Shown: positions 5,184-64,000, counted from the first letter of the stretch. The stretch is DNA of 64,000 nt from Acidimicrobium ferrooxidans (GCA_020723485.1 DYIU01000003.1:394347-458346), one strand, 5' to 3'. Notes: a model not told the origin generated them from the letters alone. Made by a program: numbers and translations.

Positions 5184-6031
5184 GGGGTGGACGCGCCGCC
5201 GGGTGGCTCTGGAGCACCAGCGAGCAGCTGGCGGAGAGGCACCGGTGGTACGCGGTCCTCTTAGAGGCTCTGGTCGATTTCCGGCGCAATAAGCTCCGGT
5301 ACCACACCTACTTCTTCACCGTCAACGCCTTCGTGGGGGTGCTCGCGCTGTTTCTCGCCATATCGTCGCTCATGGGCTTCCTGGGGGACTCCGAGTTCAA
5401 GCGGCAGGTGGTGGACGGGATGACGAGCGTGATGCCGGTGCTGCGCGGGAGCAGCTCCGAGGTCCATAACATCTTCGAGACCTTCAAGGGAGCCGCGGGC
5501 ATTGTAAGCTTTCTCTTCCTCATATGGGCGGCCACCAGGATATTCAGCGCGCTCGAGACCGGGTTCAACATCATCTGGGATTCCGAAAAGAGGCGCTACG
5601 CGCACTCTCTGCTGGTAGGCCTCCTGATGACCGCCGTGGTGGGGGCCCTGTTCCTGCTCACTTCACTGATACAGTTCGGGTTCAACAGGCTGCTCGGAGA
5701 GCTCCTCGAGACGAGGAACGTGGGCTACTACCTCGGTGTGGCGGTCGCAAAGCCCATTATCGGCCTGCTCATAAACTTCCTGCTCTTCCTGTTCGTTTAC
5801 CGCGTGGTCACCGGGGTAAGCCCGCCGTTCACCAGGTGCCTGCCCGCGGCCGCGCTGGCGGCGGTCCTCTTCCTCGGCTCCCAGTATGTCCTCAACCTCT
5901 ACTTCGATTACATCTACAAGGTGCCAGCGATATACGGGAGCCTGGCAAGCGGGATAATACTGATACTCTGGATGCAGGCGACGGGCATGATAACCTTCTA
6001 CGGCGCCGAGGTCATCCACGCGCTCGAATAG
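5180..6031 (+). CDS. yihY: YihY/BrkB-family inner membrane protein
   Basis: Six TM segments with the family-typical N-terminal region (RYHTYFFTVNAFVGVLALFLAISS) and a C-terminal GAEVIHALE. The long upstream ORF extension overlaps the amidohydrolase gene and was discarded. The start is probably TTG at 5180, which overlaps the upstream stop codon. Start is approximate. Confidence 0.7.
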   Translation: MRGGRAAGWLWSTSEQLAERHRWYAVLLEALVDFRRNKLRYHTYFFTVNAFVGVLALFLAISSLMGFLGDSEFKRQVVDGMTSVMPVLRGSSSEVHNIFETFKGAAGIVSFLFLIWAATRIFSALETGFNIIWDSEKRRYAHSLLVGLLMTAVVGALFLLTSLIQFGFNRLLGELLETRNVGYYLGVAVAKPIIGLLINFLLFLFVYRVVTGVSPPFTRCLPAAALAAVLFLGSQYVLNLYFDYIYKVPAIYGSLASGIILILWMQATGMITFYGAEVIHALE

Positions 6032-6111
6032 GGTCAGACCATTTTCGTTGCGTCAGCAACATGTTCAACATGTTAAATAGAGTGCCTGACGCAACGAAAA
6101 TGGTCTGACCC
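6031..6111. terminator. Perfect 26-bp-stem palindrome (GGGTCAGACCATTTTCGTTGCGTCAG ... CTGACGCAACGAAAATGGTCTGACCC) with a 29-nt loop. It exactly fills the gap between two convergent stop codons. Likely a bidirectional terminator and/or a palindromic repeat element.
   Basis: Arms at 6031-6056 and 6086-6111. The loop contains the direct repeat CAACATGTT twice. The arms resemble the repeat family at 11230, 33209, 51278 and 59880. Confidence 0.55.
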
Positions 6112-9100
6112 TATTCGCCGATGGTGGAGGTGCCGGCCCCGCGGCTGTTCCAGTACATCGCCTGTTCGGCCACTATCCCCTTGCCGGGGGTCTTGCAGGT
6201 GACCTCGACGGCGGCGCGGCCTGCCGGTACCCTATCCGACATGTCGTAACTCCTGCGGGAATGCGCGGGCACCACCTCGGAGAAGACGACCTCTTCCCCC
6301 TCTCCGGCCAGCGGCATGTATGAGACCTCTATCTCCACATCCTGGTTGTTGGGGTTCTGCACGATGGTCCATGTCTCGTGGCCGTTGTATGTCTCTCCAT
6401 CCGGCAGGTAGAACGTCCCCCTGGTGGAACCGACCCCGATGGAGCAGTGGCCCGCTTCTCCGTTCGGCGTGTCCCCGCCCCACAGCATGACCCTCTCGGC
6501 GACGATCGGCGCGGAGCCGTGGACTTCCATAGACAGGTCGGTGCTCGCGACCGGCTGTATATCGTTCACCCTGACGGTCCTCCTGGAGCAGGCAGGTATC
6601 TGTAACTCCGACCGCCACCTGCCGCCTTCAGATGTCATGTAGGTCACGGTGACATCCGTGTCTGTGGGCTGCGGGTTCTGCACTACCAGGTACGTCGTGA
6701 ATCCCCAGGCCGTGGTCCCTTCCGCCAGGTAGAAGTCCCTGGAGGGAGTGTCCGTGCCGATGGATTCATGCCCTTCCCTGCGGTTGTTTCCGTACATCGT
6801 CCTCTCGGGGACCACCGGCACGTCGCTTTCCACTTTGATGCTCGCGTCCGCCGCGCCTGTGTCACCGGCAACGTCGATGGAAGCCCGCGACATGGCCGGC
6901 ACCTCGTGACGGACCGTTCTCGGGGCACCGTCCTCGAACATATAGGTCACGTCGCAGGTCGCCGGGGCATCGTTGGGATTGAGAATCGTCAACCAGCACT
7001 CGAAGCCCCATGCGGAGGAGCCCTCTGCGAGGTACCAGGCCTTCCCCGGGGTATCGACTCCCACGGACGAATGGCCTTCCGCGGAAGGCGCACCCTCTCC
7101 AGTCCAGATCATCCTGCGTTCAACGGCAAGAGGCCTGCCCTCCGGGCTCTCCACGACGGTCGAGAAATCCATAGCCCCTATGTCGTCCCGGGGGTTGATG
7201 ACAGTCTGGCTCGAGGCCGGCAACTCGAGGTCGGGACGGGTCACCGGACCTGCCGGAGTAATATAGGTCAGCTTCGCCGCGGTCGCAGTTTCGTTGGGAT
7301 TCATTATCGTGAGGTATGTATCGAATCCCCAGGCGGACGACCCCTCGGCAAGGTACCCGGCAGGGTTTCGCACCTCCAGGTTTGCCGAGAACTCACTGGT
7401 GTTTCCCTCCCCGCTCGGGTCGCCTGCAGGGCTCGCGGCCGTGGCGGATATCAGGTCGCCCGCCGACATTCCGGATACCGTCGTGCTGAATTCACCGGAA
7501 CTGGCGGCCGTCACGGTCGCCAGGTAATCGCGACCCTGACCGTGACCGGAAGGGTCCGGTGAGGCCCCGGTGAGATAGAGCTCGACGGCGGCGCCTGGTG
7601 GAGCCGTGCCGCGCACCAGCGCATCCCCGGAGTCGTCTACCACGGCCTGTCCTCCCGAGAACACCGGGAAGTTGTAGCCGCGCTGGGGCTTCTCCGGGTT
7701 GTTGTTGTTCCCATCGTTGGGGGTCACACCGTCACCGAGGATATCGATGCCCAGACCGCCGTTGCAATAGATGGAATTCCCGCTTATCCGGTCGCTGTAA
7801 GAGTCCGGCGTCCAGACGACGACCCCGGCGGCCTGGTTGTCCGCTATCCGGTTGGACGTCACCTGGTTGCCTGTAGAATCAGAGAACGGGGCGAACGATA
7901 CGCCGCTGCCGAGGTTTCCCTCAATCGTGTTGTCGGAGACCACGCAGTCCGTGCCGCCCAGGCTGACGCCCGAGTCGTAGACCTTCGTGCCGAAGTCGAG
8001 CGCGGGCGGCGAGTACCCGGCGGCGACGGGCAGCGAGCCCACCGGGAGGTAGTCGCTCCCGGGCGATGCGGCCTGGAAGGCGAGCTCAAATCCTCCATCC
8101 TGAATCTCCGAGTTGTCGTAGCCGAAGCCGGGCAGCACCATGTCCATGAAGCCCAGGAGCACCTCTTTGCTGGGGAACACCCCGGCGTCGGCGTACCAGG
8201 TCATGTAGAGGTCCCCTGAGCCGTTCCACGCGTGCACGAGCCCCACGTTGAAGCTCCTGACCCCGTCCGCGAACTGGACGAGGGACCCGTCCGAGGGCAC
8301 CGCTGCGAACTCGCCGGCCGAGGGGTCCCCGATGAAGAAGCACCCCGGGAAGCCCATGATGGTCTCGTCGTAGTCGTTGCCGCCGAGCGAACGAGGCGAG
8401 TTGGAGGCCTCGTAGCAGGGCAGGCCGGTGCCGTTGCCGGTGATGGTATTCAGGCTGACGGTGCACTGGGAGACGCCGCTGAGGATGAGGCCCTGGTGGC
8501 GGTTGTACTTGATGTGGTTGCGCCCCTCTTCCGAGCCGCCCACTACCGTATGGCCCGCTTCGTTCTCAATCCTTATGCCGGTGTTCGCGTTGCCGAGCCC
8601 GGAAGCGCCGTCGCGGTTGGTACCGATGTAGTTGCCGAGCACCTCGTTGTACTCAGTCCCGGCATCCGACAGGTACACCCCCGAGTCGCCGTTGGCCGCG
8701 ATCACGTTCCCCGTGCCCGCGCCTTCTCCACCGACGGTGTTGGGATTCGAGGCCGAACCGGCGCCCGCGGTGATGCTCACGCCGCTGGAATCGTTGGGCA
8801 GGGCGGCCGTCGCTGTCGCATCGAGCCCGATCACGTTGCCGGCGACCACGTTGCCGTCGGCGTTGGGCCCGGTGATGGTCACACCGTTGGGATTGCCGCT
8901 GATCAGGTTTCCCTCTCCGGGACCGCCTCCGCCTATTGTGTTGTTCGAACTCGACGAGGCGCCTCCATCGATCCAGACACCATCGCTCGCGTTGCCGAGC
9001 GCGGCCGTGCCAGTCTTGTCGGTGCCTATGAAATTACCGGCTATGTGATTGCCGTCCGCCCGGATGCACACGCCTTCGTGGGCCGCTGCGCTTATGAGGT

Positions 9101-9791
9101 TGCCGTCCTGCGGCCCGCTGCCTCCCACCGTGTTTCCGGATGCGGAGCTCGATATGTTGATATTGTCGCTCGCCCCCGGAGCAGGAGCACCCAGGCCGTC
9201 CGCGTAAGTGCCGATGTAGTTCCCCGCCACCACGTTCCCTGTCGCGCCAGGTCCCGAGATGCCTATCCCGTTGCTCGTGAACCCGTAGATCGCGAGTCCC
9301 TGGACCGTATTTCCTCCGGAGCCGATGTTGATGCCGGTCCCGACGGAGCCCTGCCCGTTTACGGCCACCAGGATGACCCTCGAAGCTATCGGCCCTGGCG
9401 ACGCTCCATCCTGTGTGTAACCGTCAATAGTGGTGTTTCCACCATGCAGCACGGGAAGGGGTGAAAGAAGGAGTATCTCGTAGGGGCCGGCCGGGATGTC
9501 GAACTCGATGACCTTGGTGTCCTCGGGGAGCTCCGCGCTGGCATCGATCATCGCCTGCCGCAACGACCCGACCCCGGAGTCGTTGACCGTGACTACGGTG
9601 AAGGTATGCGTGTCCGCCGCTCCCGCCGGTCCGGCCACCATGAACACCGTGGCCGCGACCATTGCAATGAGCACGAGTGCGAACGCCGCGGGCACGCGGA
9701 CTATTCCGGGATACCGCTCGAATGGGACCTTCGTCTCCGGCCTCCTCCACTCAGACTTATCGGGATGCAGGTCACTGGACAGGAAGACCAC
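6111..9791 (-). CDS. Large secreted or membrane-anchored surface protein. It has an N-terminal signal anchor, a right-handed parallel beta-helix region (PbH1/NosD-like; many GNxIxGNxIG repeats), a Ser/Thr-rich linker, and 4 C-terminal ~110-aa repeats with the pattern YLAEGxxAWGF-T-L-I-NP.
   Basis: 1226-aa ORF. The periodic NxxGNxxxGN beta-helix motifs and the four repeats are visible in the translation. The start codon is GTG at 9791 or a downstream Met. Confidence 0.7.
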   Translation of the reverse strand: MVFLSSDLHPDKSEWRRPETKVPFERYPGIVRVPAAFALVLIAMVAATVFMVAGPAGAADTHTFTVVTVNDSGVGSLRQAMIDASAELPEDTKVIEFDIPAGPYEILLLSPLPVLHGGNTTIDGYTQDGASPGPIASRVILVAVNGQGSVGTGINIGSGGNTVQGLAIYGFTSNGIGISGPGATGNVVAGNYIGTYADGLGAPAPGASDNINISSSASGNTVGGSGPQDGNLISAAAHEGVCIRADGNHIAGNFIGTDKTGTAALGNASDGVWIDGGASSSSNNTIGGGGPGEGNLISGNPNGVTITGPNADGNVVAGNVIGLDATATAALPNDSSGVSITAGAGSASNPNTVGGEGAGTGNVIAANGDSGVYLSDAGTEYNEVLGNYIGTNRDGASGLGNANTGIRIENEAGHTVVGGSEEGRNHIKYNRHQGLILSGVSQCTVSLNTITGNGTGLPCYEASNSPRSLGGNDYDETIMGFPGCFFIGDPSAGEFAAVPSDGSLVQFADGVRSFNVGLVHAWNGSGDLYMTWYADAGVFPSKEVLLGFMDMVLPGFGYDNSEIQDGGFELAFQAASPGSDYLPVGSLPVAAGYSPPALDFGTKVYDSGVSLGGTDCVVSDNTIEGNLGSGVSFAPFSDSTGNQVTSNRIADNQAAGVVVWTPDSYSDRISGNSIYCNGGLGIDILGDGVTPNDGNNNNPEKPQRGYNFPVFSGGQAVVDDSGDALVRGTAPPGAAVELYLTGASPDPSGHGQGRDYLATVTAASSGEFSTTVSGMSAGDLISATAASPAGDPSGEGNTSEFSANLEVRNPAGYLAEGSSAWGFDTYLTIMNPNETATAAKLTYITPAGPVTRPDLELPASSQTVINPRDDIGAMDFSTVVESPEGRPLAVERRMIWTGEGAPSAEGHSSVGVDTPGKAWYLAEGSSAWGFECWLTILNPNDAPATCDVTYMFEDGAPRTVRHEVPAMSRASIDVAGDTGAADASIKVESDVPVVPERTMYGNNRREGHESIGTDTPSRDFYLAEGTTAWGFTTYLVVQNPQPTDTDVTVTYMTSEGGRWRSELQIPACSRRTVRVNDIQPVASTDLSMEVHGSAPIVAERVMLWGGDTPNGEAGHCSIGVGSTRGTFYLPDGETYNGHETWTIVQNPNNQDVEIEVSYMPLAGEGEEVVFSEVVPAHSRRSYDMSDRVPAGRAAVEVTCKTPGKGIVAEQAMYWNSRGAGTSTIGE

Positions 9792-10644: not shown

Positions 10645-11061
10645 CTACTCGACGACCTTGTCGTACTGGGTGCCCTCCTGCGGGTTGGTGACAGCTGCGA
10701 CTTTGCCCATGGATATACCGACGTACCAGGTCTCCTCGGCGCCGCCGTCGTCGAAGGTCAGCACCACCACACTGCGGTCATCCTCGGCGTCCTCGACTTC
10801 GTAGGTGCCCTTCCTGGACGAGCCCCATGCGTCGCCCTCGAACGTCCCGTCCTTCGTGAAGACGATCGAGCCGGGCCGACCCATGTTGTCCTTGTACGTG
10901 CCGACGATACCGGTCTCCACGTCCTCGTCGAGGGAGACGACCTCGGTCTCATGCTCGCCCTGGGTTTCGTCTTCCGTTGTCTTGCCGCCGCCGCACCCCA
11001 CAACGAGCAGCAGCCCGAGGACGAGGACCCCCAGGCAAAGGACTGCTACATACCTCTTCAT
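10645..11061 (-). CDS. Small lipoprotein (lipobox LVVGC), function unknown
   Basis: Signal peptide followed by a Cys. AAGGGGG Shine-Dalgarno site. Confidence 0.55.
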   Translation of the reverse strand: MKRYVAVLCLGVLVLGLLLVVGCGGGKTTEDETQGEHETEVVSLDEDVETGIVGTYKDNMGRPGSIVFTKDGTFEGDAWGSSRKGTYEVEDAEDDRSVVVLTFDDGGAEETWYVGISMGKVAAVTNPQEGTQYDKVVE

Positions 11062-16408: not shown

Positions 16409-16698
16409 AGCATCCCCCATCTGGGGTATATTCGGGTTGTCCCCGAATGCGGATTATTCCTTTTATACCGCGGAATGAGATATCCCCCGTATGGGGGTTA
16501 CGCATGCAAGCGGCGACGGTCAATAATTCATGCAACAGGTCCAGCGGCACATTCCACACCGCCCTGGGCACTGTGGGGTTCAAAATCGAAAGGGAAGCTT
16601 TGACCCGCGGGTTTAAACTGGTCACCTGGCCCGCGGCGAGCGAGTGGTGAAACCGGCCCGATCATCGAGGATCGGGTTTTTTATTGGGGGAGGAGAAC
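16409..16698 (+). promoter_or_regulatory. 290-nt structured non-coding leader ending in an intrinsic terminator (CCCGATC-atcgag-GATCGGG + T6 at 16657-16682), immediately upstream of the RBS and ATG of the SdrD-like gene. Candidate attenuator or riboswitch leader, or an sRNA.
   Basis: Multiple hairpins (ATTCGGG...CCCGAAT, CCCCCgtaTGGGGG, CCGCGGG-18nt-CCCGCGG). The terminator T-tract ends 8 nt before the GGAGG site. Confidence 0.4.
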
Positions 16699-18156
16699 AT
16701 GAGACGAGGAACCGTTTTCGCAGTAGTCGCCCTCATGGCACTCGCATTCGTCATGACAACGGCGGGCGCGCTGGTCGTAGCCGAGGACCCCGCCCCGACC
16801 GCGGTCGATACGAACGTGGGCGTCGTGCAGGCGCTCGTCACGGTCGACGGAGTCATGACCGACGGCATCAACGTCACCCTTTACAGCCTCAACGACGACG
16901 GCACCAGGAACCTCGTCGGCACCATGGCGAGCACCGGGGGGGCATACATGGTCTGGCCGTGGGGGACCTCCTACGCGCCGCCCGAGTCAGGCGGCTGGCA
17001 GAACGGCTGGGTCGGATGGAACGCCCTGCCCACCACGCACGCAGACAAGGACTATGTCGACTACGAAGTCGAGGTCGAGGTGCCCGCCGGTCTCATCTCG
17101 GTTAACGGGACCGTGCAGGGCGGGCTGGAAGTCGGGCGCCTGTGGGCCCCCAGCACTGAACACCCCTTCTGCTGGGGAAGGCAGTTCGAGTTCAAGCTCG
17201 AGAGCAGGCCCGTGGAGTACAGGCTGGACGGTTACAAGTTCAAGGACATGAACGAGAACGGCGTCATGGACGCGGACGAGGTCGGCATCCCCGGTGTCAC
17301 CATAGACCTGGACACCGACAAGGCCTCCGCCCAGACCGACGCCGGCGGTTACTTCAGTTTCACCGTTGCGGCGGGAGAACACACGGTGGCGGTCGACGAG
17401 TCGACGGCGCCCGGTTATTACCCCACCACCCCGACCTCGGTCGTCACCAGCGAGGGCAAAACGGTCTACTTCGGCAACGCGCCTTACGGCTCCATATGCG
17501 GCAAGAAGTACAACGACAAGAACAAGAACGGAAAGCCCGACTGCGGCGAGCCCACGCTGGGCGGCGTCACCATCAAGCTGAGCGGCAAGACCAACGTGGG
17601 CGGCGAAGAGGTGAACAAAGAGACGACCACGGCCACTGACGGCAGTTACTGCTTCACAGGGCTGAAGGCCGGCACGTACATCATCACCGAAGTGGTTCCC
17701 TCCGGCTGGTACGCGACCGGTCCGAACCCGAAGACCGTCACGCTTCTGCCGGGGCAGAACGTGACCGGCGTCGATTTCTTCAACGCTCAGGGCTGCGTGC
17801 CGTACGGTTCGATATACGGCAAGAAGTACAACGACAAGAACAAGAACGGAAGGCGAGACTGCTGGGAGCCCACGGTCTCCGGGGTCAAGGTCAAGCTCAG
17901 CGGAGTCATCGACGGCCAGCTCGTGAACAAGGAGACCACGACCTCGTGGGACGGGAGCTACTCGTTCACAGGGCTGAAGGCCGGCACGTACACGATAACG
18001 GAGGTCGTTCCCTCAGGCTGGCAGGCTACAGGCCTCGTGTCGGTTGAGGTGACGCTCCTTCCGGGACAGAAGGTGACCGGAGTCGATTTCTTCAACGTGA
18101 GGACTTCGACGTGCGGATGGACCCTGGACTGGTGCCTCTTCAGCTGCTGGTTTTAG
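16699..18156 (+). CDS. Secreted adhesin-like protein with tandem SdrD-B/CnaB-type repeats (DxNxNGxxD calcium-binding motif) and a Cys/Trp-rich C-terminal tail
   Basis: Signal peptide MRRGTVFAVVALMALAFVMTTAGA. Two near-identical ~100-aa repeats (GSICGKKYNDKNKNGKPDCGEPTLGGV...TEVVPSGW). Ends TCGWTLDWCLFSCWF. Confidence 0.7.
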   Translation: MRRGTVFAVVALMALAFVMTTAGALVVAEDPAPTAVDTNVGVVQALVTVDGVMTDGINVTLYSLNDDGTRNLVGTMASTGGAYMVWPWGTSYAPPESGGWQNGWVGWNALPTTHADKDYVDYEVEVEVPAGLISVNGTVQGGLEVGRLWAPSTEHPFCWGRQFEFKLESRPVEYRLDGYKFKDMNENGVMDADEVGIPGVTIDLDTDKASAQTDAGGYFSFTVAAGEHTVAVDESTAPGYYPTTPTSVVTSEGKTVYFGNAPYGSICGKKYNDKNKNGKPDCGEPTLGGVTIKLSGKTNVGGEEVNKETTTATDGSYCFTGLKAGTYIITEVVPSGWYATGPNPKTVTLLPGQNVTGVDFFNAQGCVPYGSIYGKKYNDKNKNGRRDCWEPTVSGVKVKLSGVIDGQLVNKETTTSWDGSYSFTGLKAGTYTITEVVPSGWQATGLVSVEVTLLPGQKVTGVDFFNVRTSTCGWTLDWCLFSCWF

Positions 18157-21500: not shown

Positions 21501-23087
21501 TTAGTCAAAGGGTATTCCATCCCAGACCCGGCGGTCCGCGCCGAAGGGGTCGTCCTGCTGGGCGGACACTACGTTGAAGACCATGGTCGCCCTGTCCTCG
21601 AGGTCGTAGGGCTTCCAGCCCGGGTCGCCCGAGCGGGCGAAGGACAGCCATGCGTCCTGCATGGCGTCGGAGAGCTTCCGGGGCGGGTCCTCCCCGAGGA
21701 GCGCCTCGAACCGTGTCCCCTCGAGGTTGCCGAAGACGAAGGGTAGCTCCATAGCGTGGCACGAGCCGAGCTTCGGCGCCGCCGGGCTGGACCACGTGAA
21801 CAGGTACATGTAGGTCTTCGGCTGTTTCGCCGATGCCTCCGCTACCCTGATGGCCGGCAGGCGGAACATCACGTCAGTCAGCACCGCCATTGTCACGTCA
21901 CCGTCCGTCGCCCCGGGCCTCCTTGACTTGTAGCTTGACGCGATAGCGTCCGCGGAGCCGCCGACGGCCGCCTGCACCTTCGGGATGAACGGCGCGACCA
22001 CGCTCAGGGGATACATTGCCATCGCCGGGGCCTCCGCAGCCCAGAGGCGCATCTCGTCCAGGTTGGTCCCGATGATAAGTTCGACTCCCGAAGCGCTTCC
22101 CGCCGCGATCGAGTGCAGTGGCGGCTCGAGGATGACCGAACCATCGAGGACCGGCCCGAACACCGTGGCCGACGCCGGGTTGGCCCTTATCATGTCGGAC
22201 TCGGCCTGGACGATGCGCTCAGTGTCGAGTGACAGGAGGCCCTGCAGGTCGGTCACCCCGGCATACTGCATGAGCTGCCGGGTGACGGCCGCGGCGTCCC
22301 CGGTCGAATGGATGAGGCTGAGGGCGCCGCTCTCGGCGATGGCCCGGCTGAAGAGCCCTTTGGCGGCGGGAATCGCCATCAGGGTGCATGTGCTCATGCT
22401 GCCGGCCGACTCCCCGAACACGGTGATGTTCCCGGGGTCGCCCCCGAACGCGGCGATGTTGTCGCGCACCCACTCAAGGGCGGCCACCTGGTCGAGCAGG
22501 CCGAGGTTCCCGCTCTGCGCGTACTCAGCCCCTCCCAGCTCGCCGAGATAGAGGAAGCCGAAGGCGCCGAGGCGGTAGTTGAGCGTCACAACCACCACGT
22601 CACCGCGCTTCGCGAGGCGGGCGCCGTCATACAGAGGTTCTGAACCCGCCCCGTTGGTGAACCCACCGCCGTGTATCCAGACCATGACGGGGCGGCGGCC
22701 GCCGTCCACCCCCGGGGTCCAGACGTTGAGGTTAAGGCAGTCTTCGGACTTCACCACGCCTGAGGCGCTGGCGATGTCACCTTTCGGCTGGGCCGCGGCA
22801 TCCCTGAAATCGAATGCTTTGAGCGTCCCGTCCCAGGGTTTCGGGGGCTCCGGCGGCTTGAAGCGGAGCGCATCGACCGGGGGCGCCGCGTAAGGTATCC
22901 CCTTGAAGACAACGACGCCGTTGGCCGCGACTTTGCCTTCGACCCTCCCCTGCGCCGTGACGGCCGTCGTTCCTATACCACAGCCGGCGGAGAACAGTAT
23001 GAGAGCTGAACACAGAGCAGCAATCAGAACGGCGGCGAGTGCGACCCTCGCACGCCCGCCCGGGAAGCTCGTCGGTATCCCGGCCAT
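21501..23087 (-). CDS. Carboxylesterase type B (para-nitrobenzyl-esterase-like) lipoprotein
   Basis: GESAGS nucleophile elbow, HGGGF oxyanion motif, and lipobox FSAGCG. The true start is the ATG at 23087; the 190-codon upstream extension in the ORF track overlaps the rubrerythrin gene. Confidence 0.85.
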   Translation of the reverse strand: MAGIPTSFPGGRARVALAAVLIAALCSALILFSAGCGIGTTAVTAQGRVEGKVAANGVVVFKGIPYAAPPVDALRFKPPEPPKPWDGTLKAFDFRDAAAQPKGDIASASGVVKSEDCLNLNVWTPGVDGGRRPVMVWIHGGGFTNGAGSEPLYDGARLAKRGDVVVVTLNYRLGAFGFLYLGELGGAEYAQSGNLGLLDQVAALEWVRDNIAAFGGDPGNITVFGESAGSMSTCTLMAIPAAKGLFSRAIAESGALSLIHSTGDAAAVTRQLMQYAGVTDLQGLLSLDTERIVQAESDMIRANPASATVFGPVLDGSVILEPPLHSIAAGSASGVELIIGTNLDEMRLWAAEAPAMAMYPLSVVAPFIPKVQAAVGGSADAIASSYKSRRPGATDGDVTMAVLTDVMFRLPAIRVAEASAKQPKTYMYLFTWSSPAAPKLGSCHAMELPFVFGNLEGTRFEALLGEDPPRKLSDAMQDAWLSFARSGDPGWKPYDLEDRATMVFNVVSAQQDDPFGADRRVWDGIPFD

Positions 23088-23119
23088 GGGCAGCTGTGTG
23101 TCGGTCAACCTGGGAATCC

Positions 23120-23677
23120 TCAGGCCTTCCCCTCGAGCTTTGTCAGCTTGTCCTCGTCGAGCTGTATGTGGTCGGCCTCTATCATCGAGAGGGCCGCGAA
23201 CACCTCTTTCACCCTGGGGTCCGTCGCCTCGGCGGCGGAAGCCGCGTAGAACTTCGTGGCGTTGTTCTCGCGCTTGAGCGACTCCCTGACGTTCTCGATG
23301 TAGGCGTCGTGGCACTCCTCGGTGTGCTCCTTGTCGGGCTTGGGCTGGCCGAGCATCTTGAGGATGGTCGACGCGTGCTCGTTCTCGACCTTCGAGAGCG
23401 CCTTGAAGGTGGCGAACCCCTCGAAATCGCCCGCCTCGTCCCCCTTGGCCGATGAGCAGCGGTAGAACGCGGTGTTGGACTGCTCGATGGCAAGAGCCTT
23501 CTCGAGGTTGCCCCTGTCCGTGTCGTTGAGGGTTCCGACCTTCGGGTCGTCCCAGTCGCTCGCGAGGATTATGTACTCCGCGTGTGCCCCGCAGAACGGG
23601 CAGTGCGAGGGTGGCACCGCCCCTATGTAAGGGTCTCCGCAAATCCTGCATCTCCATACGCGCACCTTCATATCCAT
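23120..23677 (-). CDS. Rubrerythrin-family protein with an N-terminal rubredoxin-like zinc/iron ribbon (reverse-rubrerythrin arrangement)
   Basis: CRICGD...CPFCG, then a ferritin-like ExxH four-helix region. Confidence 0.8.
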   Translation of the reverse strand: MDMKVRVWRCRICGDPYIGAVPPSHCPFCGAHAEYIILASDWDDPKVGTLNDTDRGNLEKALAIEQSNTAFYRCSSAKGDEAGDFEGFATFKALSKVENEHASTILKMLGQPKPDKEHTEECHDAYIENVRESLKRENNATKFYAASAAEATDPRVKEVFAALSMIEADHIQLDEDKLTKLEGKA

Positions 23678-23738: not shown

Positions 23739-26369
23739 TCAGGGGTCGAAGCCTATGGAGTCGTGGGCGCACTGGCGATAACACGTGGCGGTGTCCCAGT
23801 ACATCGCCCGTTCCGCGATGACCGGCTGGTCCGAGGCGACCCTGGTGGAGACGCTGAACTCGTTGGGAAGGCAGTCAGCCACGTTCAGTGTCTTCCGGGT
23901 GTGCGGGGTAAGCGTGAACTCCTGCCCGGCCACCTCTACGCCTCTGGGGGTCTGATAGTAGAGCCTCACGTTGGCAGCCGTATCTCCCGGGTTCTGCACC
24001 AGCACCCACGTCTCGAAGCATCCCTGCTGGCTCGCCCCGGTGCAACCCTCGGCGAGGTACCAGGCGCCGCAGGGCGCAGTGACGCCCACGGAATCGGTGG
24101 CCGACTGGCGGTAGGAGCCCGGGGTGCCTGTCCAGTACATCGAGCGCTCGGCGATCACGGGCTCGTCCGAATCCACCCGCGTGGAGACGCTGAACTCGTT
24201 GGGCAGAAAATCGGCGACGTTGCGTGTCTCGCGCGAGTGGGCGCCCACGGTGAGTTCGTGGCCCTTCACCTCGGTGGTCGGCGTCTGGTAGTAGAGCTGG
24301 ACATGCGCCGGGCTGCTGCCGGGGTTCTGCACGAGGACCCAGGTCTCGAACGAGCCCTGCTCATTGGTGCCGGTGCTTCCTTCGGCGAGGTACCACGCGG
24401 TGCAGGGCGCCGTGACCCCTATGGAGTCGTGGGCCGCCGCCCTGTACGCCCCCGGCGCGCACCAGTACATCGCCCTCTCAGCTATGACTGGCTGGTCGGA
24501 TGTCACCTTCGTGGACACGCTGAACTGGTTGGGCACTACATCGGCCACGTTCCGGGTCTCTCTGGCGTGCGGCTTCACCGTGAACTGGTGCCCTTCGACC
24601 TGCCCGTCCGGGGTCTGGTAGTAGTACTTCACATTGGCGGGCTCGTCTCCCGGGTTCTGAACCAAGACCCACGTCTCGAACCACCCGAATTCGTTGGCTC
24701 CCGTGCTGCCCTCGGCGAGGTACCAGGTCTTCGCCGGGGAGGTCACCCCTATCGAGTCGGTGGCGGACTGACGGAATGCGCCGGGCGCGTCCCAGTACAT
24801 GGAGCGCTCTGCGATTATAGGTCTGTTCGACACCACCCGGGTGGAGACGCTCCACTCACCGGGGACGACGTCGGCCACGCTCCTTGTATCCCGCGAGTGA
24901 GGGGCCAGCGTCATCTGCTGGCCGGGGACTTCACCGGAAGGGGTCTGGTAGAACAGCTGGACGTCCGCGGACTCGTCCCCCGGGTTCTGCACCAGTATCC
25001 AAGTCTCGAAGTAACCGAACTCGTTCACCCCCGTGCTGCCCTCGGCCAGGTACCAGGTGAATGTCGCGGGTGTGTACTTGGCCACGAAAGTGGTGTAGTC
25101 GCCGTCGGGGTCGCTGTTGGATATCGACATGCCGACGGTGTAGACGTTCCCCTTGTCGTCGACGTTGGTGGCGTGCGCCTCATCGGAATAACCGGCCCTG
25201 TTCAGCACCTGCGGGAATCCCGGGGACATCGCCCCGTTCGGAGCGTACCTGTTGGTGTGCACGCTCGTGTCCGCCTGGCGCGTGAACGAGGCCGCGATGT
25301 TGCCCTCGCTGTCCACGGCGCCGTGCCAGGTGTCGGGCGGATGGTAGCCTACCATGCCGGCGGACGAGTCCGTCTTCGGCCACCCGGCGACCTGGGCCCC
25401 GGCTTTCGTGTAACGGTTGACCAGGAGCTTCCCGGAGTCATAGGGCGGGGCGAGCGCCGCGCCCTGGGTGAGCCCCACGAGGCAGTACTGGCCGTTCGAG
25501 TCCTGGGTGACCGATGAGTACTCGTCGTAGAGCGCGCCGCCGGAGGTCCAGGTCTTGGGCCACCCGGCGGCAAGGTTTCCATCCGTGTCCATCTTGAAGA
25601 GGGCCGCGTCCCTGTCCCCTGCGCCCGGGGTCCCGTACCCGGCCGCCACAAGGTTGCCGTCCGAGTCCTGGATTATGTCGTACCCCACCGTGTTGGTGCC
25701 GGACACCTGGTATGTCCTCGGCCAGCCCGAGACGATGGTGCCTGAGGCCGTGTATTTCACCACCAGCAGCGAGTAAACCGTGCCCGCCGCGTTGCGGGCA
25801 TATCCACAGGCGACGATGTTGCCGTCCGAGTCTACGATTGCTGCGGTCCCGTACGAATGGTCGCTCACGTGCATGTACTTCGGCCAACCGGGGAGAGGAT
25901 TGCCCTCGGAATCGAGCCTCCATACGGCCAGGTTCCAGACGTTTCCCGTCGTTATCATGTAGCCGCCGATGGTCATGTCGCCGTTCGGCTCAACGAAGAC
26001 GTCCTGCCCCTCGTTCCAGCGCATGCCGGCCTGGGCGTAGAACCTGGGCCAACCCGGGAGGAGCTTACCGTCCTGCGTGTACCTGCCGACGATGAGCTCG
26101 CCGGGGTCACTACCCACGTTATCGCCGTCAGACCCGACCGCCACCACCGTGCCGTCCGGGCATATCGCCACGTTGTGGTACTCGGGGCAGCGATCAGGCC
26201 TGGGGTCGGCGTAGTAGGAAGTCCAGGGTGCGTTCGAGCCGCCCCCCGGCGCGACCGAGGCCGGCTGCGTGCCGCCCGCAAGGGCCGGCGCGATCCCGAT
26301 GGAGACACAGCAGGCGGAAAGCAGGATAGTGACGGCAAGAGCAAGGAACTGCCGCGTGTTCGCCCACAT
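23739..26369 (-). CDS. Secreted surface protein: signal peptide, an N-terminal DUF5122-like beta-propeller region, and 4-5 C-terminal ~112-aa repeats (WYLAEGSTGxNEFGxFETWVLVQNPG ... VADxxPxxFSVSTxVxSDxPxIAERxMYW ... HDSIGV)
   Basis: The repeats are nearly in register across about 560 aa. Start taken at the ATG at 26369 (MWANTRQFLALAVTILLSA, a signal peptide); the ORF track extends to 26441. Confidence 0.7.
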   Translation of the reverse strand: MWANTRQFLALAVTILLSACCVSIGIAPALAGGTQPASVAPGGGSNAPWTSYYADPRPDRCPEYHNVAICPDGTVVAVGSDGDNVGSDPGELIVGRYTQDGKLLPGWPRFYAQAGMRWNEGQDVFVEPNGDMTIGGYMITTGNVWNLAVWRLDSEGNPLPGWPKYMHVSDHSYGTAAIVDSDGNIVACGYARNAAGTVYSLLVVKYTASGTIVSGWPRTYQVSGTNTVGYDIIQDSDGNLVAAGYGTPGAGDRDAALFKMDTDGNLAAGWPKTWTSGGALYDEYSSVTQDSNGQYCLVGLTQGAALAPPYDSGKLLVNRYTKAGAQVAGWPKTDSSAGMVGYHPPDTWHGAVDSEGNIAASFTRQADTSVHTNRYAPNGAMSPGFPQVLNRAGYSDEAHATNVDDKGNVYTVGMSISNSDPDGDYTTFVAKYTPATFTWYLAEGSTGVNEFGYFETWILVQNPGDESADVQLFYQTPSGEVPGQQMTLAPHSRDTRSVADVVPGEWSVSTRVVSNRPIIAERSMYWDAPGAFRQSATDSIGVTSPAKTWYLAEGSTGANEFGWFETWVLVQNPGDEPANVKYYYQTPDGQVEGHQFTVKPHARETRNVADVVPNQFSVSTKVTSDQPVIAERAMYWCAPGAYRAAAHDSIGVTAPCTAWYLAEGSTGTNEQGSFETWVLVQNPGSSPAHVQLYYQTPTTEVKGHELTVGAHSRETRNVADFLPNEFSVSTRVDSDEPVIAERSMYWTGTPGSYRQSATDSVGVTAPCGAWYLAEGCTGASQQGCFETWVLVQNPGDTAANVRLYYQTPRGVEVAGQEFTLTPHTRKTLNVADCLPNEFSVSTRVASDQPVIAERAMYWDTATCYRQCAHDSIGFDP

Positions 26370-26461
26370 GAGAATCCCTCCCCGTGCAACAACCGCAATG
26401 CAAGGTTCTCCAGGGGGAATCATATATGAACCGGGCGGCAAGTTGCACTGGGGCCGGGGCC

Positions 26462-36240: not shown

Positions 36241-36362
36241 AACAGCCTCCCGGGTTCTTATACCTATACCTATGGTAGGGGTACCAGACAGGAAAGTCAA
36301 GTGTTTTGGTAGGTTATTTCACCGGGAATATTGAACGCTCTGGAGGCCCTGTCTGTGCGGCT

Positions 36363-37886
36363 CTACCCGCAGCACCCGCCCCGGGCCGGGGCGGGGGTTT
36401 CATCCTTCTTGAGGTCGGTCTTGCCCGGTTTTGCAGGGTCCACTACGTCCATGTAACCGGCGACCATCCCCATCCAGCAGCTGAACCGGTACCGCCCCGG
36501 TTCATCGACCTTGAACTCCTTGACGCTGGTTTTGCCGGGGGTCAGGGCGATCTCGCCGCTGAAGAGGTCCTGTGCGATGATGGCGTTGGTGCAGCCGCTC
36601 GTCCCGGTATCCTCTATCTCCCACTTCACCGGGACTCCCGCACGCACAGTCAGGTGGTCAGGACTGTAACCAGACGACGAAGCCTCCATCTCGAGGACCT
36701 GCTTGCCGTCAACGATCTCAGGGAGCTTCACATCGGCCTTCGCCGCGGTCGGTGCCTTGCCAGGGCTGAAGAGGTCCCCGAGGTTCGGCGCGTCCAGCAC
36801 GACCAGCTGATTGTTGATGTTGAACAGCGCGAAGAACAGCACCAGGACTCCTGCGACCTTCAGGAAGGTCGCGGCCAGCCTCGGCTTCTCGAGGAACTTC
36901 ACGCTGGAAAAGCCTATCACCAGCAGCATCGGCAGGGTCCCGAGAGCGAAAGCAAGCATTATGAGAGAGCCCTGGAGCGGATTCCCCGACAGCAGGGCGA
37001 AGCTCTGCGCGGTTATGGTGAACCCACACGGAACAAAGAACGTCAGGGCGCCCATCGCGAGCGGCATGTACCTTCCCTTGAAGTGAGTCTCGTCGGCCAC
37101 GTAACGGGTGACGGACTTCGGCATTGTGAACTGGAACCGGCGAAAGGACTGCACCCCCAGCATCTGGAGACCAAGTACGATCATCACAATCGAGATGGCT
37201 ATTACCATTAGTGCGGAAAACGACGGCGTCAGCCTCAATGTCCCCCCGATGCCGGCAAGCAGCGCCCCGAGCAGGGCAAACGAGACCAGCCGGCCCGCGT
37301 TGAACAGGAGGTGCGGCTCCAGCCTCTTTTTCAACGGATCATCAGGGGAGTAAAGCTCGCCCCACTGCTTGGACATCGACAGGACTATCCCGCCGACGAG
37401 CGCCGCGCAGCTCGAGAAGCCCGCGACCAGGCCGAGCAGGAGGAACACCGGGAGCGAGGACCCGCTGTCCACTTTAACAAGCCCGGTCACCCCCGCCCTC
37501 TGGAGCAGTATGACGAGAGCGACGGCCGAGACGGCCACTCCAGCTACCTTCCCTGCGTCCTTCAGCCGCGAGGAGCCGCCGGCAGCCTTCGGGCTGAGTG
37601 AGAACCTGTACCCCTCCTTCTCGAAAAGCCTGTTCAGGTCTTCAACCTTAGGCGGGCGGCCCTCGTACTCGACTGTGACGGTCTCCCTCGAGACCGACGC
37701 CTCGACCGAGTGGAGCCCGTCGAGCCCTATCAGCTTCTTCTCGATGATGACCTCGCAGGCGGGGCAGTGCATGCCCTCGACGTAGAAGTCTCGCTCGAGA
37801 GCGCCGCCCCTCCCGCGCGCCACATTCGTGGCCTTCGCCCTGTTCGTCCGCTTGTTCTTCTTTCCTGACTTGCCTCGCCTGGCCAT
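36363..37886 (-). CDS. HMA-domain membrane protein: an N-terminal MxCxxC metallochaperone domain fused to a DsbD_2/TauE-like polytopic permease and a C-terminal soluble beta-rich domain ending ...GGCCG
   Basis: GMHCPACE. 8-9 TM helices. The C-terminal approximately 120 residues are hydrophilic with terminal Cys-Cys. Confidence 0.6.
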   Translation of the reverse strand: MARRGKSGKKNKRTNRAKATNVARGRGGALERDFYVEGMHCPACEVIIEKKLIGLDGLHSVEASVSRETVTVEYEGRPPKVEDLNRLFEKEGYRFSLSPKAAGGSSRLKDAGKVAGVAVSAVALVILLQRAGVTGLVKVDSGSSLPVFLLLGLVAGFSSCAALVGGIVLSMSKQWGELYSPDDPLKKRLEPHLLFNAGRLVSFALLGALLAGIGGTLRLTPSFSALMVIAISIVMIVLGLQMLGVQSFRRFQFTMPKSVTRYVADETHFKGRYMPLAMGALTFFVPCGFTITAQSFALLSGNPLQGSLIMLAFALGTLPMLLVIGFSSVKFLEKPRLAATFLKVAGVLVLFFALFNINNQLVVLDAPNLGDLFSPGKAPTAAKADVKLPEIVDGKQVLEMEASSSGYSPDHLTVRAGVPVKWEIEDTGTSGCTNAIIAQDLFSGEIALTPGKTSVKEFKVDEPGRYRFSCWMGMVAGYMDVVDPAKPGKTDLKKDETPAPARGGCCG

Positions 37887-62118: not shown

Positions 62119-64000
62119 TCACTGGGGCTGGTAGGCGGCGGCGCCGATGGTGTCGGTGCCTGCGCCCCGGCCGTCCCAGTACATCGACCTCTCCGCCGTC
62201 ACGCTCTTACCCGGAGTAACGCAAGTGACCGCGATGGCCGCCCGTCCCGTGATGCCGCCGTGCTCGAAGAGTCCGAACGTCCGCCTGGCTCCTGCCGGCA
62301 CCGACTCGACGTGATGTAGGTTGCCGTCACCGGTCGGGGTGAGGTAGGAGATCATGACCTGCACCGGGACGTCGTTGGGGTTCGCGACCACGGTCCAGGT
62401 CTCGTATCCTCCTCCAGCCTGACCGTCCGGGAAGTAGAAGGTGCTGTGCGGAGAGCTCATCCCTATCGAGCCGTGACACGCTTCGCCCAGCGGGGTACCC
62501 TCCCCCCAGAACATCGAGCGCTCGGCCACCAGGGGGCGGCTCCCGCTGACACGCGTAGAGAAGTCGGTGCTCGAAAGCCCGGGGACGTCGTTCGCCCTTA
62601 TGGTCTTTCTGGACCTCGCGGGCATCTCGAACGGCTGCTGGGCAAGCGTCCCTCCCGGCGTCATGTAGTTCACGGTTACCGTGTTGGGTTCGCTGTTCGG
62701 GTTCTGTATCACCACGTAGGTCGTGAAGCCCCATGCAGTAGTGCCTTCAGCGAGATAGAAGTCCGACCCCGGTGCCGCAGCGCCGATCGACTCCTGCCCC
62801 TCCCTGCGCTCGTTCCTGTACATCGTACGCTCGGCCACCACCGGTCTGTCTGAGCTCACCTGGACCGAAGCGTCGCCTCTGCCGATGTCCGCCTCCATGC
62901 CGAAGGTCGAGCGCGAGCGGGCGGGCACCGTCTTCCGCACGCTCAACGGACCAGAGCCCTCCACCATGTACGTCAGCACGACGGAGGCCGCGGAGGAGTC
63001 AGGATTCTGCACGCAGGTCCACGTCTCGAACCCCCAGGCGCTCGAGCCGTCCGCCAGGTACCAGGTGCCGGACGGCGCCGTCGCGCCGACCGAGCAGTGG
63101 CCCTCTGGGGCGGGGGCGCCGGGACCGGTCCAGGACATGGTCCTGTCGACAGCGACAGCCTGGCCGCCCGGACAGGTCACCCTCGTGGAGAAATCGGCCT
63201 GGCCTATCGAGCCGAGTATGTAGTCGCTGCCCAGGGTGGTCTGGGAGGAAGCCGGCAGCGTGACGCGGCGTGTCCTGTTCGCTCCCCCGACGGGCATGAA
63301 CGTGACATTCGCGGCCACCCGTTCCGTGTTCGGGTTCAATATCGTGATGTAAGTACTGAAGCCCCAGGCTGTGCTCCCCTCGGCCAGGTACCAGGTCGAG
63401 TTGACGCTGCTCACGGTGAAGGCGCCCGCTCGGGTCGCCGACTTACCGTCCGGGTTCTGCACGAAGAGGTCCCATGCCCCGGGCGCCGCGCCCGCGAGGT
63501 CGAACCCGCACCTTAGACTCGTGTCTGACTCGACCAGTACGCCGGTGGCGACCAGGTCCGCCTGCCCGGGCTTCCGCAGCTTCACGACTGTCGAGCCGAA
63601 AGTCTCGAAACCGGTGCCGGCCACCTGTGCGCTCGCCGCCGTCCCCTGCCTGGCGCTGGACGGGGAGACAGATGTGATGGTCGGGGGAGGATAATCAACC
63701 GTGTAGTCCCTGGAATCGGAGGTGCCGAACGGCGTGGTAACCGTGACCGGCACGGGGCCGGGCATGTTGACCGGCGCCACGCATTGTATTTCGGCACCGG
63801 TCCACGACAGGTACTCGGCGACCTGCTGCGAGCCGAACGAGACGTAGGATGCGCCGCCGTCCGGGCCGAAGTAGTTGCCCGCCAGCGTCACGGTCTCGCC
63901 CACCGGCCCGGTCGAGGGAGATATCGAGTCCAGGGCCGGGCCGCCCATGTAGCCGAGCGCGTCCCGCATGGTCATCACCGGGACGCCCGAGTTCTCGATC
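62119..64000 (-). CDS. Secreted surface protein, N-terminus beyond the window edge: an IPT/TIG-like domain or domains, then 4 ~110-aa YLAEGxxAWGF...QNP...AERxM(Y/F)W repeats. Close paralog of the C-terminal module of the 6111-9791 gene.
   Basis: The frame is open to coordinate 64000. The repeats align with those of the 6111 and 23739 genes. Confidence 0.7.
   Translation of the reverse strand, partial: IENSGVPVMTMRDALGYMGGPALDSISPSTGPVGETVTLAGNYFGPDGGASYVSFGSQQVAEYLSWTGAEIQCVAPVNMPGPVPVTVTTPFGTSDSRDYTVDYPPPTITSVSPSSARQGTAASAQVAGTGFETFGSTVVKLRKPGQADLVATGVLVESDTSLRCGFDLAGAAPGAWDLFVQNPDGKSATRAGAFTVSSVNSTWYLAEGSTAWGFSTYITILNPNTERVAANVTFMPVGGANRTRRVTLPASSQTTLGSDYILGSIGQADFSTRVTCPGGQAVAVDRTMSWTGPGAPAPEGHCSVGATAPSGTWYLADGSSAWGFETWTCVQNPDSSAASVVLTYMVEGSGPLSVRKTVPARSRSTFGMEADIGRGDASVQVSSDRPVVAERTMYRNERREGQESIGAAAPGSDFYLAEGTTAWGFTTYVVIQNPNSEPNTVTVNYMTPGGTLAQQPFEMPARSRKTIRANDVPGLSSTDFSTRVSGSRPLVAERSMFWGEGTPLGEACHGSIGMSSPHSTFYFPDGQAGGGYETWTVVANPNDVPVQVMISYLTPTGDGNLHHVESVPAGARRTFGLFEHGGITGRAAIAVTCVTPGKSVTAERSMYWDGRGAGTDTIGAAAYQPQ

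Follow-up and report, generated by a model that had tools for sequence, protein, structure and literature searches.

Four fused ASRT-like (DUF5719) domains as a candidate cell-wall anchoring module of Geothermincolia-type Actinomycetota

Background

The superfamily of ASRAH domains was described by De Souza, Iyer & Aravind (2009, Biol Direct 4:25), who gave as its features a conserved Trp opening strand 1 and, closing strand 2, an Asn that hardly varies, with an ungapped turn. ASRAH domains come in twos or fours, and the same authors predicted that these dyads and tetrads mimic a tetramer and that the domains bind a sugar or another small molecule, in a cleft on one face of a sheet. For the tetrads associated with amidases in Chloroflexi, binding to an element of peptidoglycan was proposed. 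In the literature that we searched, the name ASRAH is used in the 2009 paper only. The solo proteins ASRT and TM1070 oligomerise and are tetramer-forming, and published work on ASRT itself deals with DNA looping (PMC8660804).

Among the established wall-binding modules, CWB2 consists of three repeats of ~90 aa and is found in 29 paralogues that include amidase and protease heads. The tetrad family described here is absent from two broad reviews, one on wall-binding modules and one on wall hydrolases, and the literature on Geothermincolia does not cover surface proteins in its titles and abstracts.

Results and discussion

Three genes with a C-terminal tetrad

The window, which is the whole 64-kb stretch of DNA analysed here, was scanned in all six reading frames with a repeat profile built from the window repeats. 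Three genes, A, B and C, have exactly four tandem repeats each at the C-terminus, with per-copy E values from 1e-32 to 1e-45, and no further gene with the repeat was found by this profile in the six frames of the window. The three ORFs named in a preliminary description of this DNA all exist on the minus strand, the start given there for B (26369) being an in-frame ATG at residue 25. The features are as follows.

6111..9791, minus strand: gene A, ORF of 1226 aa; signal-like N-terminus, then right-handed beta-helix head, then C-terminal ASRT-like tetrad
9615..9791, minus strand: N-terminal leader of A, hydrophobic segment …VPAAFALVLIAMVAATVFMVAGPAGA/AD, read as Sec signal peptide
7359..9614, minus strand: head of A, parallel beta-helix of the GNxxxGNxIG type plus linker domain
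7038..7358, minus strand: A repeat 1, residues 812-918 (repeat profile, E 6e-38)
6735..7037, minus strand: A repeat 2, residues 919-1019 (repeat profile, E 1.6e-39)
6414..6734, minus strand: A repeat 3, residues 1020-1126 (repeat profile, E 3.1e-41)
6114..6413, minus strand: A repeat 4, residues 1127-1226 (E 1.4e-32), running up to the stop codon
23739..26441, minus strand: gene B, 900 aa from TTG or 876 aa from ATG at 26369; signal peptide, DUF5122/delta-60 propeller head, homogeneous C-terminal tetrad
25056..26369, minus strand: leader and beta-propeller head of B (DUF5122 at 39 bits)
24726..25055, minus strand: B repeat 1, residues 463-572 (repeat profile, E 1.7e-42)
24396..24725, minus strand: B repeat 2, residues 573-682 (repeat profile, E 9.6e-45)
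24063..24395, minus strand: B repeat 3, residues 683-793 (repeat profile, E 6.8e-42)
23742..24062, minus strand: B repeat 4, residues 794-900 (E 6.6e-41), running up to the stop codon
62119..64000, minus strand: gene C, 626 aa visible, N-terminus past the window end; IPT/TIG head(s), then C-terminal tetrad
63700..63939, minus strand: IPT/TIG domain of C, visible residues 21-100 (PF01833 at 48-52 bits)
63064..63393, minus strand: C repeat 1, visible residues 203-312 (repeat profile, E 2.1e-37)
62761..63063, minus strand: C repeat 2, residues 313-413 (repeat profile, E 3.7e-40)
62440..62760, minus strand: C repeat 3, residues 414-520 (repeat profile, E 8.6e-42)
62122..62439, minus strand: C repeat 4, residues 521-626 (E 1.6e-32), ending 6 residues before the stop

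The leader of A reaches a hydropathy of 2.85 in a 12-residue window and, judged from its sequence, is presumably a Sec signal peptide with a putative cleavage site; the actual start codon of this gene may lie further inside. For B the in-frame ATG is a more plausible start than the TTG. A possible lipobox (LSAC) is present in the leader of B, and no lipobox cysteine was found in gene A. Pfam matches a different head in each protein, as had been described: Beta_helix in A (PF13229, 31.6 bits, residues 612-688 of the head), DUF5122 in B and TIG in C. The TIGR02608 delta-60 repeat scores 72.1 bits in B, slightly under its cutoff of 76.5. With sizes of 876-1226 aa, to call these proteins giant was an overstatement.

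The 12 window repeats are 100-111 aa long, ~105 being typical. Of the 4-5 tandem ~110-aa copies reported earlier, the tandem arrangement stands and the fifth copy does not, as the profile always finds four. The conserved blocks listed at that time (WYLAEG, QNP, TYMT/YYQTP, SRxT, FSVST, AERxMYW and HxSIG) are all found in the repeats, and seven residues, Y2, G6, N24, P25, V74, M86 and G103, are identical in all 12.

Repeats of A and C are most alike at the same position (A1 to C1 50 %, A2 to C2 54 %, A3 to C3 56 %, A4 to C4 48 % identity), compared to 22-45 %, mostly 25-40 %, off the diagonal. The repeats of B share 62-71 % identity among themselves and 28-42 % with those of A and C, confirming that the modules of A and C are nearer to each other than to that of B; at the DNA level the B repeats show a 330-bp period with 71 % matches. 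The tetrad of A is nearer to proteins of other genomes (61-62 % identity) than to C (53 %) and we therefore regard A and C as old paralogues rather than the product of a local expansion.

Assignment to the ASRT-like/DUF5719 fold

Pfam matches DUF5719 (PF18986) in all three proteins, at 54.2 bits in A, 64.6 bits in B and 53.1 bits in C against a cutoff of 26.2 bits; the strongest stretch in A covers residues 1015-1095, around repeat 3. The repeat is predicted to fold as a beta-sandwich of eight strands, and this fold superposes on both TM1070 and ASRT. Matches of the window repeat profile to the PDB chains of ASRT and TM1070 are weak (E 0.009-0.011), and 10 of 93 relatives match PF07100 (ASRT) at E<=1e-5, the best at 2.1e-14. 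The ASRAH marks, a strand-1 aromatic residue and an invariant Asn ending strand 2, are present in the repeats: position 1, in the consensus T-W-Y-L-A-E-G, is W in seven of the 12, F in four and G in one, and N24-P25 is invariant in all 12 as well as in 50-sequence alignments. As far as domain and family are concerned, and these alone, we are nearly certain that each ~105-aa repeat is an ASRT-like (ASRAH) eight-stranded beta-sandwich.

The domain has thus already been named, and therefore the earlier claim of a novel repeat outside any named family falls: Pfam DUF5719 is above threshold in A, B and C, the fold is that of TM1070/ASRT and the superfamily was described in 2009. The Pfam match and the fold together refute the reading as an unknown repeat family. 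What the profile search supplies is a family name, DUF5719, for a domain whose function is a prediction only.

The window proteins differ from the solo members of the superfamily (PDB 1NC7 for TM1070; 2II7 for the Anabaena sensory rhodopsin transducer). Those are intracellular, single-domain and carry a SHEshChhN signature, whereas the window domains are secreted, stand four in a row and are joined to other domains. The H and C of this signature (Pfam ASRT, formerly DUF1362), which contact the ligand in TM1070, are replaced in the window repeats by F (or H/Y in repeat 4) and by V/L/I, and for this reason the TM1070 pocket cannot be transferred to them.

Canonical DUF5719 is probably family 3 of De Souza et al., a lipoprotein of actinobacteria in which conserved N- and C-terminal extensions flank a pair of ASRAH domains and whose gene lies near those for WhiB, a glycosyltransferase and an inactive zincin. 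The window proteins resemble it in their scores (54-65 bits, with a gathering threshold of 26.2), and some relatives are named 'DUF5719 family protein' by NCBI. They differ in having four domains and not two, and most tetrad proteins are probably not lipoproteins. The window matches span profile positions ~45-130 of 319, those of relatives at most ~40-251; they take in the core of the domain and leave out the flanking extensions. No WhiB, glycosyltransferase or zincin domain was found among 20 neighbouring or large window ORFs scanned.

The tetrad as a predicted rigid body

Structure prediction gives a pLDDT of 94.7 and a pTM of 0.92 for the tetrad of A, and 97.2 and 0.93 for that of B. According to these models the four domains, which follow one another with hardly any linker, make up a single rigid body. 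Copy number is four in 359 of 389 relatives and eight in 8, in a sample that was ranked by score and in which proteins with fewer copies are under-sampled.

Two forms of the tetrad are seen. In differentiated tetrads, identity between repeats at the same position is 58-67 % compared to 30-39 % between other positions. In homogenised, B-type tetrads the positional signal across proteins is absent, and four copies are still kept. The rigid tetrad would be a pseudo-tetramer, linked covalently, in place of the homotetramer that solo ASRT/TM1070 form, and its four domains may be arranged as in that tetramer.

The preliminary description named a shared stalk among the possible roles of the 4-5 repeats. 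Taken further, this would make them a hitherto unknown family forming an extended stalk of variable length, and the lack of any mention of 'DUF5719' in the literature searched fits such a reading. We give it next to no credence given the Pfam and fold assignment above, the copy number fixed at four and the block predicted as one rigid body.

Distribution and architecture of relatives

The tetrad is widespread in MAGs of Geothermincolia/Anoxymicrobiaceae-type Actinomycetota. Relatives are confined to this group and expanded in it, two MAGs each contributing at least 13-14 tetrad loci to the best 79 matches, in agreement with the earlier suggestion of a lineage-specific system. A search with the single-repeat profile returns 8268 sequence clusters at 50 % identity.

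In 254 of the 261 relatives fetched first, at most 15 aa follow the last repeat, and the median is 0. Such an extreme C-terminal place would suit a sorting or secretion signal that is removed or covalently processed, in the manner of the T9SS C-terminal domain or of sortase/exosortase signals. This we find highly improbable: with its 415-440 aa the tetrad far exceeds all known sorting signals, it precedes the enzyme in 35 relatives and is internal in 5, and Sec-type leaders are present. Moreover, none of A, B and C has an LPXTG motif or a C-terminal extension past the last repeat. A signal-like leader is found in 196 of 298 relatives starting with Met, and a simple pattern test detects a lipobox-like motif in 8 of these 196.

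More than 40 Pfam head families are fused to the tetrad, which bears out the proposal of domain shuffling. Heads in the 93 relatives scanned include TIG, S8, C39, C1 and C14 proteases, lipases, Metallophos and propellers. Fusions to peptidoglycan enzymes comprise Amidase_3, Peptidase_M23, SpoIID, Beta-lactamase2 and an M99-like carboxypeptidase; the Amidase_3 fusion occurs in the relatives P0279, P0302 and P0360 and is syntenic in two assemblies.

The tetrad could also be a carbohydrate-binding module that faces outward, serving adhesion or substrate targeting on environmental polysaccharides or other cells and not the cell's own wall. We think this unlikely. A glycoside hydrolase is the head in only about one of 93 relatives, and the common substrate location of the tetrad enzymes (proteases, phosphatases and lipases, besides peptidoglycan enzymes of five kinds) is the cell's own wall. 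An invariant module on so many unrelated heads suits a common address more than a common substrate.

Sixty-four relatives consist only of a leader (or a truncated N-terminus) and the tetrad, 25 of them with a proper leader. These secreted tetrad-only proteins, together with double tetrads, the great abundance of the family and the oligomerisation of solo ASRT and TM1070, would be expected of a self-assembly module, be it a coat resembling an S-layer or a unit through which tetrad proteins oligomerise with one another. Yet a rigid four-domain fusion, as modelled, would most simply satisfy the tetramer interfaces within one molecule, fusions to peptidoglycan hydrolases are unexpected for lattice subunits, and dozens of heads are found in place of a single dominant paralogue. 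We consider a lattice role quite improbable.

Proposed function in wall anchoring

On balance we lean, by analogy, towards the reading that the tetrad of ASRT-like/DUF5719 domains, as one rigid body, is a non-covalent cell-wall anchoring module. Non-covalent wall binding is inferred from the fusions to peptidoglycan enzymes, the terminal position and the many paralogues. Among the stalk, S-layer and wall-binding roles first suggested, the stalk is lost and wall binding is the best supported, given the peptidoglycan enzymes to which the tetrad is joined in relatives. Tetrad proteins would be exported by Sec through their N-terminal signal peptides. The tetrad would then bind a cell-wall glycan non-covalently, either peptidoglycan or an attached secondary polymer, and the fused head would be held on the surface of Geothermincolia-type cells. 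Cargo would be the adhesin-like TIG, beta-helix and propeller heads in the window, and proteases, phosphatases, lipases and peptidoglycan hydrolases in relatives. Both the glycan binding and the wall as its target are putative, and the tetrad-only secreted proteins, anchors with no cargo, are odd under an anchoring function. The exchange of the ligand-contacting H and C counts against it too.

A, B and C are surrounded by unrelated housekeeping genes. The neighbours encode an amidohydrolase, BrkB, a methyltransferase, rubrerythrin and ThiF, and there is a 362-aa ORF that no Pfam family matches; in the window neighbourhoods no conserved neighbour ties A, B and C to a wall-polymer pathway. Synteny is lacking between B and its orthologue in a Geothermincolia MAG. 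A phage endolysin with the module would have independently supported wall binding. Two scans of viral contigs revealed none, so this support is absent; only two loci were found, of which one, next to recombination genes, encodes a protein made of leader and tetrad alone and the other a 25 % relative.

The Chloroflexi tetrads associated with amidases make up family 2 of De Souza et al. (2009). They are likewise secreted with four tandem ASRAH domains, and relatives of B share the Amidase_3 fusion. A, B and C differ from these Chloroflexi proteins in having no amidase domain by Pfam, in carrying the tetrad C-terminally behind a beta-helix, propeller or TIG head and in their host lineage, which similarity places near Geothermincolia in the Actinomycetota, the best genome match being 61 % identical. 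The Geothermincolia-type module also differs in the number of its head families, in the many paralogues per genome and in its two forms, differentiated and homogenised.

With the CWB2 (PF04122) and SLH (PF00395) triads of Firmicutes the tetrad shares a logic, that of a fixed small number of ~90-105-aa tandem domains making one pseudo-symmetric terminal body, and also the many paralogues with unrelated heads, amidases and proteases included. Folds and sequences are unrelated, and there are four repeats here compared to three there. CWB2 binds PSII and SLH a pyruvylated wall polysaccharide, while the glycan ligand of the tetrad is putative. Neither PF00395 nor PF04122 matches in A, B or C, and neither is among the 25 most frequent families listed for the 93 relatives.

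Conclusions

The two tetrad forms offer a clean case of a homo-oligomer hard-wired into one chain, one form being ancient with a fixed repeat order and the other repeatedly homogenised, always with four copies. It is conceivable, and we propose it tentatively and with some doubt, that the fused ASRAH tetrad is the main, so far unrecognised surface-anchoring system of Geothermincolia-type Actinomycetota, in which four predicted sugar clefts, set in one rigid body after the pattern of the ASRT/TM1070 homotetramer, would recognise a wall glycan specific to the lineage. If this is true, the pseudo-oligomeric wall-binding modules SLH, CWB2 and choline-binding repeats would be joined by a fourth kind, and the ASRT/DUF5719 superfamily as a whole would gain its first biochemical function, the conserved DUF5719 lipoprotein of actinobacteria included. 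A role as wall anchor would also give the superfamily a testable ligand hypothesis, yield a compact surface-display tag and define the way in which exoenzymes and adhesins are displayed by an uncultured class of actinobacteria.

Three genes share a C-terminal four-repeat module

Three genes of the window, named A, B and C, encode secreted proteins with a shared C-terminal repeat module, a proposal of the preliminary description that the ORFs, an alignment of the repeats and a six-frame profile search confirm. Repeat boundaries were set by the WYLAEG starts and HxSIG ends, and the repeats were then aligned.

Genes carrying the module (repeat positions in residues)
6111-9791, minus strand: gene A, ORF of 1226 aa; repeats start at 812, 919, 1020 and 1127 and end at 1226
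23739-26441, minus strand: gene B, ORF of 900 aa from TTG; repeats start at 463, 573, 683 and 794 and end at 900
62119 to beyond 64000, minus strand: gene C, ORF with 626 aa visible; repeats start at 203, 313, 414 and 521 and end at 626 of the visible residues

The start given earlier for gene B, 26369, is an in-frame ATG at residue 25 and the likelier start; the ORF extends to the TTG at 26441. In the alignment, four repeats of 100-111 aa each close all three proteins, which stop in the last repeat without a C-terminal extension and lack LPXTG. Hydrophobic leaders are found at the N-termini of A and B. A profile of the 12 repeats matched exactly 12 copies in the six reading frames of the window (per-copy E 1e-32 to 1e-45) and none beyond them, so that the copy number is four per gene and not '4-5', and chance is excluded.

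Repeats of A and C at the same position are 50, 54, 56 and 48 % identical, compared to 22-45 % (mostly 25-40 %) off the diagonal. The gene B repeats, seen in its DNA as a 330-bp period, are 62-71 % identical among themselves and 28-42 % identical to those of A and C. The earlier view that A and C are mutually closer than either is to B thus holds, as does the view that each module is fused to a different domain, or head: Beta_helix (Pfam) in A, a DUF5122/delta-60 propeller in B and IPT/TIG in C.

Other genes of the window

A secreted SdrD_B/CarboxypepD_reg/SpaA-type protein of 490 aa (16684-18156, plus strand) has neither the module nor LPXTG. Its unusual Cys/Trp-rich C-terminal tail, TSTCGWTLDWCLFSCWF, might act as another kind of C-terminal signal, for anchoring or for lipidation. 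The 718-aa ORF at 21501-23657 (minus strand) appears by eye to be of carboxylesterase type; its true start is probably internal (…MAGIPTSFPGGRARVALAAVLIAALCSALILFSAGCG…), in which case its signal peptide would include a lipobox-like LFSAGC. Two ORFs, 61025-62113 (plus strand) and 10645-11061 (minus strand), show strong coding-type GC3 (0.86) and no Pfam match; the former is convergent with gene C and ends 6 bp from its stop codon. A copper P-type ATPase with HMA domains adjoining a DsbD_2-HMA-cupredoxin protein (33316-37886, minus strand) and a same-strand ORF run including an anthranilate synthase gene (53265-59994, minus strand; gene at 58342-59994) are ordinary housekeeping context without link to genes A, B and C.

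The repeat belongs to a known superfamily

The repeat had been described as novel. Pfam DUF5719 (PF18986), however, scores 54.2, 64.6 and 53.1 bits on A, B and C against a cutoff of 26.2, and Pfam ASRT (PF07100) directly matches 10 of 93 representative relatives, that is, proteins matching the repeat profile (best E 2.1e-14). Some relatives are labelled 'DUF5719 family protein' at NCBI. We assign the repeat to ASRAH, the beta-sandwich superfamily with the solo proteins TM1070 and ASRT that was defined by De Souza, Iyer and Aravind (2009, PMC2739507). Its diagnostics are an aromatic residue opening strand 1 and an invariant Asn ending strand 2 (PMC2739507); the repeats have W/F at position 1 and an invariant N24-P25.

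Described members are solo intracellular tetramer-forming proteins, four-domain secreted amidases of Chloroflexi and a two-domain actinobacterial lipoprotein adjoining WhiB and a glycosyltransferase (PMC2739507). Sugar binding by these domains is a prediction, and dyads and tetrads were proposed to mimic the tetramer, whose interface contributes to the binding cleft (PMC2739507). Unlike the solo ASRT family, A, B and C are multi-domain and lack the H/C signature. They differ from the canonical DUF5719 dyad lipoprotein in having four domains, with the profile matching the domain core only, and in lacking the WhiB/glycosyltransferase context; they differ from the amidase family in lacking the amidase domain.

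Four domains are predicted to form one unit

A single-repeat profile retrieved 8268 clusters at 50 % identity, of which 3388 reach E<=1e-30. Among 389 fetched relatives, a score-ranked sample in which low-copy proteins are therefore under-represented, 359 have four copies (one tetrad) and 8 have eight (two tetrads), other numbers being very rare; even so, the lack of proteins with 6, 12 or 16 copies among the best-scoring ones is informative. In some of the double-tetrad proteins (P0121-P0131) the first tetrad immediately follows the signal peptide and the second is C-terminal, with TIG arrays separating them; in others the two are back to back. One relative with 7 copies at a period of ~113 aa (P0156) looks like a truncated gene.

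A head followed by a C-terminal tetrad is found in 255 of the 389 and a leader (or truncated N-terminus) with the tetrad only in 64; the tetrad is N-terminal to another domain in 35 and internal in 5. For the first 261 relatives retrieved, a median of 0 residues follows the last repeat. With the tetrad N-terminal or internal in some relatives, we regard a sorting signal as a very improbable role.

Tetrads of the A/C type have intra-protein repeat identities of 30-40 %, and across proteins 58-67 % at matching positions compared to 30-39 % at other positions, which marks the tetrad as old and its repeat order, R1-R2-R3-R4, as fixed. The 27 proteins with B-type tetrads have at least 50 % identity between their own repeats and show no positional signal across proteins (53-56 % everywhere); these repeats undergo homogenisation or re-amplification, with the count still four. 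Models of the four-repeat block reached pLDDT 94.7 and pTM 0.92 for A (49 homologues) and pLDDT 97.2 and pTM 0.93 for B. That both forms settle on four, with pTM above 0.9, argues for one structural unit instead of a stalk. The novel stalk repeat proposed initially is refuted, and we give it practically no weight.

Distribution and heads

A scan of species-representative genomes gave at least 522 confirmed loci. Nearly all of the best 79 of these belong to Actinomycetota MAGs with labels such as Geothermincolia and Anoxymicrobiaceae, 14 of them in one MAG and 13 in another. Two loci 54-60 % identical to A (L004 and L060; JAHIKV010000381.1 and JAHIKV010000324.1) lie in a Planctomycetota-labelled MAG, which is probably mis-binned or mislabelled; all other top matches are Actinomycetota. 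The A tetrad is 61-62 % identical to proteins of other genomes and 53 % identical to that of C, so three genes in 64 kb reflect a high genomic density and not local duplication.

The closest relative of gene B (82 % identity, Geothermincolia MAG) is not syntenic. At locus L080 (GCA_038326775.1, JBBQKJ010000036.1, 8273-14244) the 82 %-identical orthologue adjoins a polysaccharide-synthesis cluster (Wzz/tyrosine-kinase-like, Bac_transf, split transketolase, DegT aminotransferase, GT4), a single case not repeated in the window. A 50-kb viral-classed contig (L083, IMG/VR UViG_3300014204_000035, 5878-7266) encodes a signal peptide with an A/C-type tetrad only, 49 % identical to that of A, near a Gp3-like recombination directionality factor, a PD-(D/E)XK nuclease and an SMC-like ATPase.

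Signal-like leaders occur in 196 of 298 relatives starting with Met, and 8 of the 196 have a lipobox-like motif. Heads in the 93 representative relatives include TIG (34), Metallophos (7), peptidases (C39, S8, C1, C14), lipases, polysaccharide deacetylase, BNR/sortilin and RCC1 propellers, 5'-nucleotidase and a single glycoside hydrolase, GH42. The many unrelated heads support the domain shuffling suggested earlier. Gene B relatives are fused to peptidoglycan enzymes (Pfam Amidase_3, Peptidase_M23, SpoIID, Beta-lactamase2 and M99-like carboxypeptidase), with the tetrad N-terminal of the enzyme in most and C-terminal in the SpoIID fusion. The tetrad-Amidase_3 gene has a common neighbourhood in two assemblies (L081 4001-6010 and L082 4001-5998), which suggests a conserved core wall-remodelling gene. 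The order there is two-component system, dUTPase/DCD, YgjP-like, Metallophos, tetrad-Amidase_3, T2SSE ATPase, histone-deacetylase-like and NlpC/P60.

A candidate wall anchor

The best-supported reading is that tetrad proteins would be exported by Sec and that the tetrad would bind cell-wall glycan non-covalently, keeping the fused head at the surface; how the four domains are arranged, what they bind and that the wall is the target are inferred. Pointing this way are a single invariant terminal module that each genome combines with dozens of unrelated secreted heads, heads of five enzyme kinds that act on the cell's own wall, and the near-absence of glycoside hydrolases. The shared surface or wall module first proposed is likewise supported.

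Several observations weigh against wall anchoring. The repeats have not kept the TM1070 cleft residues, tetrad-only relatives exist, the scanned neighbouring and large ORFs of the window hold no polymer-pathway link, and scans of viral contigs found no phage endolysins with the tetrad. An outward-facing CBM or adhesin module is an alternative that we consider unlikely, with one glycoside hydrolase among the heads of the 93 relatives; a self-assembly or lattice module is less likely still. Wall anchoring by the tetrad would have parallels: its architecture pattern is shared with SLH and with CWB2, which binds PSII through three repeats of ~90 aa, has amidase and protease heads and numbers 29 paralogues in C. 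difficile, although its fold is unrelated to either.

Two broad reviews, of wall-binding modules and of wall hydrolases respectively, mention neither DUF5719 nor ASRT, and we found no mention of DUF5719 in the literature searched. The domain itself is already known, having been named in Pfam and described in 2009. The module is best regarded as an ASRAH tetrad of general use, mostly C-terminal, among the secreted proteins of one actinobacterial class. A specialist is unlikely to be greatly surprised by it; the size of the DUF5719/ASRT-like family and the clean four-in-one architecture nonetheless make the tetrad a definite and testable candidate for a new kind of wall anchor.
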